Counted from the first letter of the stretch, positions 46,528-51,969 are shown. The stretch: DNA of 64,000 nt from Candidatus Poribacteria bacterium (GCA_963665845.2 OY762492.1:800001-864000), one strand, 5' to 3'. The notes: generated by a model not told the origin, from the sequence alone. Program-made: numbers and translations.

Positions 46528-47196
46528 TTAGCTGGTTTCTTTATTCCGTTTCGCTTTCGGGTTCATTTTCGACTGAATCGCCGCGCCGAGAGCATGCAGA
46601 GCCGCTGCCGCGTCGTCGGTCGACCCTGTATGAACGATATTCGTTCCGTTCTCCGTATGCTGAACAGACGTCTCAATGTTTTTCCGCTGCAGATACAGCC
46701 GCGCCGCGGTCGGCGTGAGGCGTCCGCCGCGCGCCGCCAACTTAGCGAGATGCGGTTTGCCCTTGCTCATCTCATGGCGCATTTCGGCATGCGCTTGGAC
46801 GATCGGGACCCGCTCTTCGTTCTCGGTTGCGATGCGGAGCTCAAATCCGTCGTCGGTCAGATGAACGGAGCGCGACACATCTCGCATGCCGCGCCTGCGC
46901 CGTTCATGTCCATGGCGTCCGCGGCGTTCGGGTCGTCCTCGCCGCGCGCCGCTTCTTGAACCTCGGCGCGCATCGCTTCGGCGTTCGGGTCGTCCTCGCC
47001 GCGCGCCGCTTCTTGAACCTCGGCGCGCATCGCTTCGGCGTTCAGGGCGTCCGCGCCTTTCATGTCCTGGTCTTCCGCGCCGTTCATGGCGTTTCGGACC
47101 TCGCCGCGCGCCGCTTCGGCGTTCTGGTCGCCCTCGCCGTTCATGGCGTTTCGGACCTCGCCGGCTGTTTCCTCGTTCTGTTTCTTTTCTCAACAT
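46528..47196 (-). CDS. hypothetical protein with Arg-rich tandem-repeat N-terminus
   Basis: GGAGGA SD before MLRKETER; RRGRPERRSDARRGSRSGA repeats (57-bp units); globular-looking C-terminal half. Confidence 0.7.
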   Translation of the reverse strand: MLRKETERGNSRRGPKRHERRGRPERRSGARRGPKRHERRGRPGHERRGRPERRSDARRGSRSGARRGRPERRSDARRGSRSGARRGRPERRGRHGHERRRRGMRDVSRSVHLTDDGFELRIATENEERVPIVQAHAEMRHEMSKGKPHLAKLAARGGRLTPTAARLYLQRKNIETSVQHTENGTNIVHTGSTDDAAAALHALGAAIQSKMNPKAKRNKETS

Positions 47197-47274
47197 TTCC
47201 TCCGTTGATTTTGCTTCGCCGCCGCTCCGCATGCTTTCATGCGTTTGGGCGGCTTCTTTTGTCTTTCAATCATC

Positions 47275-47303: not shown

Positions 47304-47463
47304 GCGCATCTGGACGGCGCCTGCGGCGCCTAAGATTCCCGCTTACGCGGGAATGACAACATGGGGGCGCGGGAATGATGAGTTGGGGCGCGGCGCCGTT
47401 CCCTCTTGGGCGCGGTCTATGTTACACTGGATATATCACATAAAAAACGCGAAGGGCGCGAAA

Positions 47464-48248: not shown

Positions 48249-49139
48249 TCAAAGATATTGGCGCAGCCGCGACGCATGCGGGCGCTGGCGGATGCTGTTG
48301 AAGGCGGCAACTTCCAGCTGGCGCACCCGTTCGCGCGACAGCCCCACCTCTTGCCCGACTTCGCGCAGGCTGCGCGCCCCGCCGTCGTCCAGCCCGTAGC
48401 GAAGACGGACGACGCGCGCCGTTCGCGGGTCCAACTCGGACAGCACCGATTCAAGCTCCTCCCGTTTCATCTTCTCCTCGGCGATGGCGTCGGGGCGGCG
48501 CCGGCTCTCGTCCTCAATCGTTTCATACAGCGGCCGCCCGCAGTCGCCCGCTTTGGCGTCCAGCGACACGGTCTCGCTTTCGGCGCCCAACGCCCGCTTC
48601 ACCTGATCATGCGTCAATCCGCTCGCGGACGACAGCGCCTCTATCGATTCCTCTCCGCTGTTTTGATGCCGGCGAATCTGGCGCCGCCACTCCTGCAGGT
48701 AGGTCGGCACGCGCACCGCGCGCGCCTGATTTGCGACCGCGAGACCCATCCGCTGCCGTATCCACATGGCGGCGTAGGAGCTGAACGGAACGCCGCGCCG
48801 CCAGTCGAACGTTTCGATGGCGCGAAGGATGCCCATGGAACCTTCCTGTATCAGATCCAGCGTATCGACGCCTCGGTTGCGGTACTTTTTTGAAATGGAG
48901 GCGGCAAGACGCAGGTTTCGCCGCGCGATTTCGTCGCGCGCGCGTTTCTCTTCAGCCTCAATCCGTTGAACGACCGCGCGGGGGCGTCCCTGTTTCTCCG
49001 CCTGCCGGCGCGCTTTCCGAAGCATGTCAAGCCGACGGAAAAGGGCGGTCTCCTGCTCCCTTGTCAACAAAGGCGTTTTGCCAATCTCTTTCAGGTATGC
49101 TTCCAGAGCCGTTCCGCTGGGTCGTTTCAAATTGGACAT
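48249..49139 (-). CDS. RpoD/RpoS-like group 2 sigma70 factor (no region 1.1)
   Basis: YLKEIGKTPLLT, NLRL, DLIQEG, FSSYA.MWIRQ, SLREVG...SRERVRQLE. Confidence 0.93.
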   Translation of the reverse strand: MSNLKRPSGTALEAYLKEIGKTPLLTREQETALFRRLDMLRKARRQAEKQGRPRAVVQRIEAEEKRARDEIARRNLRLAASISKKYRNRGVDTLDLIQEGSMGILRAIETFDWRRGVPFSSYAAMWIRQRMGLAVANQARAVRVPTYLQEWRRQIRRHQNSGEESIEALSSASGLTHDQVKRALGAESETVSLDAKAGDCGRPLYETIEDESRRRPDAIAEEKMKREELESVLSELDPRTARVVRLRYGLDDGGARSLREVGQEVGLSRERVRQLEVAAFNSIRQRPHASRLRQYL

Positions 49140-49181
49140 CTCTTTTTCTCCACGCTTTTTACGCCGCTTCCCCCTCCTTTA

Positions 49182-49197
49182 AGCAAAAAGCGTGCCA
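49182..49197 (-). promoter_or_regulatory. sigma54 -24/-12 promoter
   Basis: TGGCACGCTTTTTGCT matches TGGCACG-N4-TTGCW, 42 bp upstream of the sigma-factor ATG. Confidence 0.85.
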
Positions 49198-49268
49198 ACT
49201 TAGGCGGCGGGGCGGCTCGCGCCGTATGCGGCTTTGCGCCCTTATCGGCGGACAGGCAGACGAAAAAG

Positions 49269-49306
49269 TGTCGCGTTTTTGATACAGGTGTATCGTTTAT
49301 GGACGA
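49269..49306. promoter_or_regulatory. putative bEBP upstream activating sequences
   Basis: TGTCGC-N6-GATACA followed by TGTATC; perfect inverted repeat GATACA-GG-TGTATC. Confidence 0.55.
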
Positions 49307-49320
49307 AAGGCGCCGCGCGC

Positions 49321-50751
49321 TTACGATTCTCTTTTGAGCTGATGCGCCTTGATCTTGCGGTGAAGAACGGAGCGGCTGATCTGCAGTCTCTCTGCCGCTT
49401 GAGTCACGTTGCCGTTGGCGCGTTCCATCGCGCATCGGATCATATACTTTTCAAATTCAGCCGACGCTTCCGAGAGCGGCATCTGCGCCAGCATCCGCAG
49501 ATAGCTGTTCGTTTCCCTGTCCGCCCTCTCCTCCAGCGCTTCCTCCTGATCCCAAAAATCGGGCGGGAAGTCGTCGCACCGTATCAGCACCCCGCCGCAC
49601 TGCAGCGCCGCCGCTTCAACAGCGTTGCGCAGCTCGCGGATATTGCCGCCCCATACGCGCGTCATCAGCCGCGGCAGCACATCCTTGTCAAAACCGAACA
49701 CATGCTTTTTCAGCTTCTGGCAATGCCGCATCAAAAAGAACTCGGCGAGCATCGGTATGTCGTCGCGCCGTTCGCGCAGGGGCGGAACCCGTATCGTGAC
49801 GGCGCGTATGCGGTAGTACAGGTCGCGGCGCAGCTTGCCGCTTCGCGCCGACTCCTCCAGCGGTTGATTCGTCGCCGCCACAATTCGAACGTCGCAGCGG
49901 GTCAGCCGCCCTCCGACGCGCTGTATCTCGCCTTTTTCTAAGGCGCGCAGCAGTTTCGGCTGCGCCTCCAGCGACATATCCCCGATCTCATCCAGAAAAA
50001 GCGTCCCGCCCTCCGCCTCCATGAATTTTCCCTCGCGCGCGTCCACATCGGTCGCGACGCGCCGGTCAATGCCGAACAGCTCCGCCTCCACCAGCTCATC
50101 CGGTATGGCGCTGCAGTTGATCGCAATGAACGGCTTGTCGGCGCGGGGGCTGCACTTGTGAATCGCCTCGGCGACCAGCTCCTTTCCGGAGCCGCTTTCG
50201 CCCACAATCAGAACGGTGGAATCGGTCGGGGCGACCCGTCCGACCGTGGTCGTCAATTCAATCATAGCGGCGCTGGATCCGACCATGGTCGTCAATTCGG
50301 AGGAGTGGTCGCGCATCGGCGCTTCATCGGCGTCCAATCGGCGCTCGGCGGAAATGGCGCGCACAACCCGCACCAGCCGCTCGTAATCGATCGGCTTGAT
50401 GATATAGTCGCGCGCTCCCGTGAGGCTGGCGCGCAGCGACGTGTCCGCCGAACTATGCCCCGTGATAATGATCACATCGGCGGGCTTAGCGCCCTTCTTC
50501 GCCTCCTGCAGCGCCTTCAACCCGCCCAGCTTGTCGCGCGCGCCGTCCCGGTCGGGCATCCACAGGTCCGCGATGACAATGTCGTACGGCTCCTCGGCAT
50601 ACCTGATTTTATCCAGCGTCTCATCCCTGTCGTATGCCGCGTCCACCTTGACCGACAGGTCCGACTCCATGAGCAGCTGCTGCGCGATGTAGCGGCAGGT
50701 GTCTCGGTTGTCGTCCGAGACGAGTATGCGGATCGGCTGATCGCTTGACAT
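49321..50751 (-). CDS. NtrC-family sigma54-dependent response regulator (REC-AAA-HTH)
   Basis: SDD, DLWMP, GESGSGKE, LFLDEIG, RRDLYYR, Fis HTH; GAFTGA replaced by RVATDV. Confidence 0.93.
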   Translation of the reverse strand: MSSDQPIRILVSDDNRDTCRYIAQQLLMESDLSVKVDAAYDRDETLDKIRYAEEPYDIVIADLWMPDRDGARDKLGGLKALQEAKKGAKPADVIIITGHSSADTSLRASLTGARDYIIKPIDYERLVRVVRAISAERRLDADEAPMRDHSSELTTMVGSSAAMIELTTTVGRVAPTDSTVLIVGESGSGKELVAEAIHKCSPRADKPFIAINCSAIPDELVEAELFGIDRRVATDVDAREGKFMEAEGGTLFLDEIGDMSLEAQPKLLRALEKGEIQRVGGRLTRCDVRIVAATNQPLEESARSGKLRRDLYYRIRAVTIRVPPLRERRDDIPMLAEFFLMRHCQKLKKHVFGFDKDVLPRLMTRVWGGNIRELRNAVEAAALQCGGVLIRCDDFPPDFWDQEEALEERADRETNSYLRMLAQMPLSEASAEFEKYMIRCAMERANGNVTQAAERLQISRSVLHRKIKAHQLKRES

Positions 50752-50871
50752 ACGCTTCCCCTCAACTGCCCCCTATCTTAAACCATTCGGAGGATGGGGG
50801 CAAGTATGAAAAACAGGCGCGATTCGGTATCATGCAGGCGTTTCAACTCCTTCGGCAAGGTTCACCGCTCC

Positions 50872-51969
50872 ATGCGACTCAAAACGGTATGCATTTTATT
50901 CGCGGCGGCGCTCGGTTTCTCCCTCGGCGCCGAGGCGCAAACGTACACGATTCAGCCCGGCGACAGCCTGCGCATCCTGATCTTGAACAGACCCGAATAC
51001 ACACAGGAGGTGACCGTCGGGCCGGACGGAATGCTGCCGTATTTTTTAGTCGGCTCCATCGACACAAAAGGAATGACGCTTGAGGCGCTTCAAGAGCGAA
51101 TCGCGGAGGGGTTGTCGAAACATTTCAGCGATCCGCAGGCGATTGTGGTTCCGACGCCGCGCAGTTACGGGGTTTATGTCGGAGGGCAGGTTGCGAACCC
51201 CGGTTTTCATACGGCGCCGGAGCCTGAAATCGATCTTCGGCGGGCGGTCATCTTGGCGGGCGGACCGTTGCCGGACAGCGCCAATCTCAAAAACGCGCTG
51301 CTGTACCGCGCGGACGGCGAGACGGCCGCATACGACCTGACACGGTACGCGCAGCCCCCGCCGACGGTGAAAAACGGCGACGCCGTCTATATTCCGCCTA
51401 AAACGCGCATATTGGTGTCGGGCAATGTTCAAAAACCGGACGTCTATTATGTGGACGCGCCGCCGACCGCCGCGTTTGCGCTGGCGCTGGCGGGCGGACC
51501 GATGGAAGACCGCGCCGCCCTGGACCGACTCGTCATCCTGCGTTCAGACGGCGTCAGCGAAACGATCAGCCTGTCGGAGCATTTTTGGAACGACGACCCA
51601 GAAACGCTGCCGCGCCTGCAGTCCGGCGACGCGCTGTTTGTGCCGTACGCTTACGCGGCGGAGGAGATCAGCGTCATTGGATATGTCCGCGCGCCTGGCT
51701 TATATAAGGTGCGCGGACCGATACCGGTCGGACGCGCGCTGGCGCTCTCCGGCGGGGCGGATGTCGCCAAAGCGGATATGAACTCCGCTGAAATACAACG
51801 GCTGGACGGCTCCTGGGAGAAGGTGGACCTGCGGACCGAGGCGACCAGCGTTTTAGTCCATCCCGGCGAAACGGTGCGCGTCCGCAAGCGGTTTCAAGTG
51901 AACTGGTCATTCGTTCTCAGCGCCGTCACAACAGGGGTACTTCTCGCGCGCTTTATTCAAAACAACTAA
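50872..51969 (+). CDS. polysaccharide export / SLBB-repeat protein (Wza-like)
   Basis: YTIQPGDSL, VGPDG, three VxGxVxxPG SLBB repeats. Confidence 0.9.
   Translation: MRLKTVCILFAAALGFSLGAEAQTYTIQPGDSLRILILNRPEYTQEVTVGPDGMLPYFLVGSIDTKGMTLEALQERIAEGLSKHFSDPQAIVVPTPRSYGVYVGGQVANPGFHTAPEPEIDLRRAVILAGGPLPDSANLKNALLYRADGETAAYDLTRYAQPPPTVKNGDAVYIPPKTRILVSGNVQKPDVYYVDAPPTAAFALALAGGPMEDRAALDRLVILRSDGVSETISLSEHFWNDDPETLPRLQSGDALFVPYAYAAEEISVIGYVRAPGLYKVRGPIPVGRALALSGGADVAKADMNSAEIQRLDGSWEKVDLRTEATSVLVHPGETVRVRKRFQVNWSFVLSAVTTGVLLARFIQNN

Follow-up and report, generated by a model that had tools for sequence, protein, structure and literature searches.

The window, a stretch of 64,000 nucleotides from the genome of a Candidatus Poribacteria bacterium (G000, 3.98 Mb), contains two co-oriented genes on the minus strand, coding for an NtrC-type activator and an alternative sigma70 factor, with a sigma54-type promoter motif and two palindromic boxes between them. 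The features of this module are reported below in window coordinates, along with a kinase gene found elsewhere in the genome.

48249..49139, minus strand: gene for an alternative sigma70 factor of 296 aa, regions 1.2-4, no region 1.1 (open reading frame; Pfam Sigma70 r1.2, r2, r3 and r4)
49197..49182, minus strand: -24/-12 sigma54 promoter motif TGGCACGCTTTTTGCT, 42 bp before the sigma ATG
49269..49286, no strand: 18-bp dyad TGTATCAAAAACGCGACA, a clear TGT-N12-ACA, candidate enhancer site 2
49289..49306, no strand: degenerate upstream copy of the dyad, candidate enhancer site 1, 14 bp past the activator stop
49321..50751, minus strand: gene for an NtrC-type activator of 476 aa, REC-AAA+-HTH_8 (open reading frame call; Pfam)
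50044..50070, minus strand: variant L1 loop I228-V236 (IDRRVATDV), located by alignment, one residue shorter than the GAFTGA type
G000 C1:2458855-2460693, 1.6 Mb from the module: CHASE2 kinase orthologue (E 1e-157)

The activator and the sigma gene

The reading frame at 49321-50751(-) had been presented, in a preliminary description made from the sequence alone, as a co-oriented REC-AAA-HTH activator, and the Pfam domains (REC, Sigma54_activat with its lid, HTH_8) confirm it; the AAA+ domain (PF00158) scores 195.9 bits, against a cut-off of 20.2. The protein scores below every NCBIfam equivalog cut-off shown. In architecture (REC-AAA-HTH_8) and fold it resembles ZraR, AtoC, NtrC1 and DctD, and sites of the TGT-N12-ACA type, as found at the module, are known for bEBPs; unlike these four proteins, it features an L1 loop of the form xVATxV, one residue shorter. 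The AlphaFold model shows a normal fold, the loop region being a weaker part of it. When 30 orthologues, picked by whole-protein similarity, were aligned, the phospho-acceptor D62, Walker A and B, sensor I N295, R308/R314 (arginine fingers) and sensor II R372 turned out to be invariant in all 30. An orthologue at 54% identity, and the same module at another locus, are both found under Ca. Poribacteria.

Divergent from the activator lies a Wza-like polysaccharide export gene (window 50794-51969), a neighbour present in G000 and G001 only. On the other side of the module, low-complexity Arg/Gly-rich repeats (RRGRPERR), overlapped by an Ala/Glu-rich repeat frame and without Pfam match, occupy 46528-47232, and a short element at 47312-47378, where depth is high and loose ends are numerous in both runs, is likely a genome-wide repeat.

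The sigma gene codes for a group-2-like factor, composed of regions 1.2, 2, 3 and 4 without region 1.1 (the region 3 match is below its cut-off); a separate RpoD is present in the genome. The factor had been called RpoS-like, which holds for its architecture only: RpoS identity was rejected, the scores being below the RpoS cut-offs (TIGR02394, 180.8 vs 378.7; PRK05657, 177.7 vs 394). With support of 0.97, the module sigmas group together in a single clade, and they belong to a Poribacteria clade with an altered region 2.4 (consensus WWIQQAIG) and an RpoD-like region 4.2, so that a preference for an ordinary -35 and a shifted -10 element is likely. No targets of the module sigma70 were found. 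A second group-2-like sigma70 gene of G000 (L258, G000:C1:3140003-3140957) is preceded by a near-perfect -24/-12 motif, kept in G001 and G007 (L262, L263), without the module dyad, indicating that other activators do feed sigma genes.

Promoter motif and candidate enhancer sites

The consensus -24/-12 promoter reported 42 bp upstream of the sigma gene stands, at 49197..49182: none of 500 base shuffles of the region reaches its score and, when the 3.98 Mb of G000 are scanned with a matrix derived from the general -24/-12 consensus, not from the sites studied here, it is among the 9 top-scoring matches, another of which precedes what we take to be a glutamine synthetase-like gene. With a second matrix, from which 6 of the 7 family-f1 regions were left out and which contains no f1 site among its 15, the module promoter ranks second of 61 -24/-12-like sites in G000. 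Consensus spacing predicts a transcript start near 49171. The intergenic stretch contains no match to a sigma70-type promoter. Nor is a terminator-like site seen in the stretch separating activator and sigma gene, so that sigma54 transcription may be supplemented, or supplanted, by read-through. Pieces of both genes are covered by contigs of one metatranscriptome, from a differing strain, where neither start nor strand is resolvable.

Of the palindromic TGT...ACA boxes previously indicated upstream of the promoter, one is a clear dyad (49286..49269), while in the second (49306..49289) the outer half is degenerate; the counterpart of this second copy is stronger in relatives. The family consensus is TGTCAC-N6-GTGACA. 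At the module loci, dyads are found 81-343 bp upstream of the promoter, with a tandem period of 19-21 bp: in 20 of 21 regions, G001 being the exception, a second copy 19-21 bp away is within the three best sites, and both copies are weak in G002. Such variation in distance from the promoter is expected of an enhancer, and not of a steric repressor or of an activator working from a fixed position. Position and co-occurrence suggest that the activator binds these dyads.

A search for the junction pattern in five closed genomes returned matches no commoner than in a reversed control. None of the 17 junction loci inspected, 3 of which are the module itself, featured a tandem dyad with a promoter, and no second conserved target emerged from them. 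One candidate target, at C1:28140, was rejected: its dyad score is high, but the dyad is broken in G001. The same position (L261:2140-2447, G000:C1:28140) features a perfect -24/-12 motif before a gene of 81 aa, kept in G001 and G007.

Conservation of the module in Poribacteria

By profile search, the activator is present in 35 of the 121 genomes of the phylum and in none of the 82 of family f8; in this family, kinase and activator are both not found in 17 of the 17 genomes searched. Of 41 genomes, 24 contain the loop pattern: 22 matches correspond to the module activator and 3 further ones are found in G011, G031 and G038. Activator and sigma gene are adjacent in 18 of 20 first loci, and in all 20 of the previously unused genomes described below; in one of the two exceptions the sigma gene has moved, in the other the contig ends. 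In G003, where the sigma gene is away from the activator, it still features a dyad and GG-N10-GC.

A -24/-12 score of at least 12.6 is found before all 20 module sigmas, vs 3 of 26 paralogous sigma70 genes, in a comparison from which 6 rows lacking the anchor motif were dropped, with one sigma gene at a contig start and G002 providing a weak match only. Among genus representatives (one genome each), the motif beats at least 497 of 500 base shuffles in 10 of 11; G002, which is 64% complete and has frameshifted genes, contains weak motifs only. The preliminary description had named conservation in relatives as a check of the promoter and of synteny; gene order, promoter and dyads are indeed kept there and also in 20 previously unused genomes, analyzed with matrices built beforehand: each of the 20, of which 14 belong to one genus and 2 represent a new family, has within a 7-kb locus the kinase, the xVATxV loop, a tandem dyad with a period of 19 bp, a -24/-12 motif and the sigma gene. 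Many genomes are close kin, and these counts are therefore not independent.

The variant L1 loop

The activator loop reads ELFGIDRRVATDV. As had been proposed, Thr is kept and Phe is lost, with RVATDV in place of GAFTGA. The loop is also one residue short, as first described, but the gap had been misplaced: it sits after the motif, which sets the register as RVATDV against GAFTGA. All 30 orthologues have I228, V232, A233, T234 and V236; the invariance of loop and ATPase residues points to selection, not decay. A survey of L1 loops in G000, likewise suggested at the outset, showed that its 7 other bEBPs carry GAFTGA, GAFTDA or GSFTGA. RVATDV is neither GAFTGA nor an accepted variant with Phe or Tyr at position 3, and published motif filters exclude the activator.

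In recent structures, as far as their available text goes, the loop is a pore loop, whose Phe and Thr pockets hold every second residue of sigma54 region I; in NtrC1, F216, T217, L263 and I203 line the pockets gripping region I, and K213 contacts DNA (PMC11839083). By motif register, NtrC1 F216, T217, L263, I203 and K213 correspond to A233, T234, V279, L220 and R230 of the activator. Three of the four pocket residues are thus kept or conservatively changed (T234, L220 and V279 for T217, I203 and L263) and the DNA-touching basic residue is retained (R230 for K213), Phe alone being replaced, by Ala. The invariant Val/Ile residues around the lost Phe (I228, V232, V236) may rebuild a hydrophobic pocket for region I. 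A complex prediction with four AAA domains and RpoN 1-45 scored 0.00, and is evidence neither way.

xVATxV proteins in other phyla

A pattern scan of 185,579 genomes detected ELFGIxxxVATxV stretches at at least 118 loci. Among the matches listed, most are from Acidobacteriota, others from Myxococcota, Desulfobacterota, Zixibacteria, Eisenbacteria and Nitrospinota; nearly all of those listed are GVATGV-type bEBPs, non-bEBPs amounting to 3 of 80 flanked matches. Their input domains vary (GAF, FHA, REC, kinase-TPR). The length of the loop, measured to the next Gly and not part of the search pattern, is 13 residues in 89 of 89 xVATxV proteins, vs 14 in all 27 measurable rows of 30 GAFTGA proteins. 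The Poribacteria activator carries E[LM]FGIxxxVATxV and a 13-residue loop, the signature of GVATGV or DVUA0100-like proteins.

A strict -24/-12 motif lies within 3.5 kb in 22 of 70 xVATxV loci; shuffles give 3.0 and, of 564 background windows taken from G000, 31 contain one. The 70 are the flanked 80 minus 3 false matches, 1 from Poribacteria and 6 missed by the Walker A pattern. No such motif is nearby in 48 of the 70, nor in any of the 7 GAFTGA-type loci in G000. rpoN was found in 47 of 50 host genomes searched, two double matches being fragments, and region I is ordinary in the 22 sequences readable from 30 loci. In a tree built with the loop included, 89 xVATxV and 5 GAFTGA rows form one clade (support 0.94); with the loop masked, a single xVATxV clade is rejected (p-AU 0.003), in an analysis of 43 of 119 rows with unsupported deep branches. 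The nearest relatives from outside Poribacteria (L127, L132, L170) are found at loci with a hybrid kinase and the activator, followed by a -24/-12 motif that precedes a response regulator and a Ser/Thr kinase.

From these data it is reasonably likely that xVATxV represents a second, Phe-less way to grip and thread region I, used by a large subfamily working with ordinary sigma54, and spread over Poribacteria, Acidobacteriota, Myxococcota, Desulfobacterota and other little-studied phyla.

The sigma54 gene

rpoN, whose presence had been indicated as a point to verify, is found once in G000, where it passes TIGR02395; closed relatives with the module have canonical rpoN only. Region I is of the ordinary MTPKLQQAI type in module-bearing genomes, and is slightly drifted in G000 (MTAKMHQ for MTPKLQQ). 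The idea of a divergent sigma54/bEBP interface that co-evolved is not upheld by the single canonical rpoN of G000 and the ordinary region I of its relatives; it is disfavoured also because the same RpoN would have to serve the 7 GAFTGA-type activators of G000 as well.

A very divergent second sigma54-like gene, coding for about 450 aa, occurs in 8 of 41 Poribacteria genomes (L215-L222, e.g. L217:7482-8855, G023). Its product keeps the RpoN box (RRTVTYYR), has an N-terminus without the Gln/Leu-rich region I and aligns poorly in the core-binding part; it could represent a novel class of sigma54 or a variant that needs no activator. The gene did not turn up in G000, nor in G012, G017 and G030, which are single-contig genomes; all four carry the module. 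At one further locus (L223, G010:C922), an RNA-polymerase-beta'-like reading frame, a degenerate sigma54-like one and an atypical bEBP (loop GSWTDL) lie side by side.

The kinase and its neighbourhood

A CHASE2-HisKA-HATPase kinase gene is directly upstream of the activator in 17 of 18 wide loci from relatives, and also on three short contigs; it is detached from the module in G000 and G001. To the earlier statement that the window holds no cognate kinase it must be added that a candidate exists elsewhere in G000, where the CHASE2 orthologue is among the kinases without a neighbouring bEBP. Gene order in the relatives suggests that this kinase pairs with the receiver of the activator. No canonical partner-activator gene is conserved in the neighbourhood.

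Upstream of the kinase, relatives encode, in the same orientation, one or two secreted propeller/Ig proteins with an FlgD_ig tail (about 800 and 1500-1850 aa; L049-L065, L286-L298), a protein of 710 aa weakly resembling UPF0164 barrels and an exported protein of 310 aa, these last two belonging to no family; in G000, neither of the two was found. A -24/-12-like motif precedes the first gene of the series at 10 of 12 loci, each of the 10 belonging to family f2 or f6. The model of the 310-aa protein (L060:5312-6223) shows a beta domain at the N-terminus and, toward the C-terminus, a part with faint similarity to transglutaminase folds (Z about 6). A FecR identity for the protein upstream of the kinase was rejected, as there is no Pfam, PDB-sequence or atlas match; in the fold search its top matches reach Z 7.7 and about 6, within the range of common arrangements, and include no FecR. 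A flagellar role was also discarded, with no flagellin match in G000 (90% complete).

The secreted proteins encoded upstream of the kinase suggest a surface or periplasmic signal. Nothing observed supports the developmental or host-response switch initially imagined; what relatives conserve around the kinase is indicative of sensing at the cell surface. CHASE2 ligands are unknown, according to the portion of PMC5192318 available. The same text describes Burkholderia BiofilmReg, where, as in the relatives' operon, a CHASE2 kinase is beside an extracytoplasmic protein and a response regulator; there, however, the partners are a LysM-FecR protein and an OmpR-type regulator, while in Poribacteria the upstream protein has no Pfam or FecR match and the regulator is a bEBP.

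Proposed cascade and alternative explanations

A sigma54-to-sigma70 cascade with an adjacent activator, as first put forward, is supported by rpoN and by the conserved promoter, dyads and gene order. In its present form, leading from the CHASE2 kinase to the xVATxV activator, canonical sigma54 and a lineage-specific group-2-like sigma70, it is quite probable. It builds on parts found in a set order, conserved together and absent together, on intact receiver and ATPase motifs and on one canonical rpoN. The membrane CHASE2 kinase would phosphorylate D62 of the activator; activator dimers, on the tandem TGT-N12-ACA dyads behind their own gene, would nucleate a hexamer, and the DNA would loop toward the sigma54 holoenzyme at -24/-12. 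Despite the RVATDV loop, ATP-driven threading of region I would then open the adjacent promoter with the single, ordinary sigma54, and the alternative sigma70 would be made. Activation of the promoter by way of the variant loop, like the loop's mode of action, we infer from sequence comparison.

The activator might bind the dyads and be unable to remodel sigma54, acting as a repressor, an anti-activator or a partner subunit of a GAFTGA-type activator. Hetero-oligomeric bEBPs exist, e.g. HrpR/HrpS, and 7 canonical activators are present in G000. Loss of Phe is also reported to abolish activation in model bEBPs: replacements other than Tyr were inactive in mutational work on GAFTGA activators, as related second-hand from PMC3162934, and the available text of PMC7175178 agrees. 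Yet steric repression would not account for sites whose upstream distance varies (80-340 bp), loop and ATPase motifs show no variation, the neighbourhood includes no conserved canonical partner gene and the same loop precedes -24/-12 motifs in other phyla: this explanation is unlikely.

It is very unlikely that the activator has left sigma54, as TyrR, VpsR and Caulobacter NtrC have, so that the sigma gene would be transcribed by a sigma70-family polymerase or by read-through, the -24/-12 motif belonging to another activator or serving as a sigma54 roadblock. GAFTGA-degenerate homologues are indeed known, from the accounts available, as sigma70-dependent, the two genes are not separated by a terminator-like site, and the second sigma70 gene of G000 combines a -24/-12 motif with the lack of a dyad. 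Against this, no sigma70-type promoter match is found in the intergenic stretch, dyad and -24/-12 motif travel with the sigma gene in G003, and 47 of 50 wider-family genomes retain rpoN. TyrR, DhaR, HupR, VpsR and Caulobacter NtrC share with the activator the lack of GAFTGA; in the sources available, TyrR-type homologues show deletions or substitutions and act without sigma54, while the module combines a conserved -24/-12 motif with a loop swapped for another invariant motif, neither deleted nor decayed.

A dedicated, divergent sigma54 matching the variant loop, for which the paralogue seen in 8 of 41 relatives, with its atypical N-terminus, and the small deviations in region I of G000 RpoN might speak, is largely refuted and highly improbable, since the paralogue is not found in G000, G012, G017 and G030, region I is ordinary in the other module-bearing genomes and wider-family genomes have one canonical rpoN.

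Relation to known systems and significance

The cascade from kinase to alternative sigma70 is of a type already known. In Pseudomonas syringae HrpR/S-RpoN-HrpL, likewise, expression of an alternative sigma70-family gene depends on an activator together with sigma54. The same is described, in the accessible text, for Borrelia Hk2-Rrp2-RpoN-RpoS (PMC4014564, PMC1976401, PMC11109971). Unlike both, the module features a GAFTGA-less activator, candidate enhancers behind the activator's own gene and a CHASE2 input, and its sigma is neither an RpoS nor an ECF factor. The new part is the invariant, Phe-less loop, together with a clean enhancer-promoter target and canonical sigma54.

The closest precedent is DVUA0100 of Desulfovibrio vulgaris Hildenborough, with GVATGV, predicted in 2015 to activate type III secretion operons at sigma54 promoters (PMC4641369, from the text available). 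The plasmid gene compared, identified as probably DVUA0100 by its operon and motif, shares with the activator the loop signature and length, EMFGIERGVATGVSARKG aligns without gap and the AAA domains are 46% identical; DVUA0100 differs in being one-component and in its targets, its activation is predicted only, and it was regarded as an isolated curiosity rather than as one of a family. Among the top full-text matches for the loop spellings, only PMC4641369 concerns bEBPs. No description of the xVATxV family or of the Poribacteria module was found in the literature searched, which covers neither subscription papers nor the supplements of PMC3162934 and PMC4641369.

GAFTGA, above all its Phe, is treated as invariant and essential in the texts available, and genome surveys keep only GAFTGA proteins; PMC12316311, in its available part, calls the motif invariant and uses it as a filter. 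If xVATxV proteins do work with ordinary sigma54, GAFTGA would not be defining for sigma54 activators, and motif-filtered surveys would have discarded a whole class, to be added, as a widespread one, to the sigma54 networks of several phyla. A natural Phe-less loop working with canonical sigma54 would directly test the pore-loop pocket model, and the Poribacteria module would supply a ready-made kinase, activator, enhancer and promoter as a proof system. For Poribacteria, it would be the first defined signal cascade in the literature searched, lost as a unit in one family.
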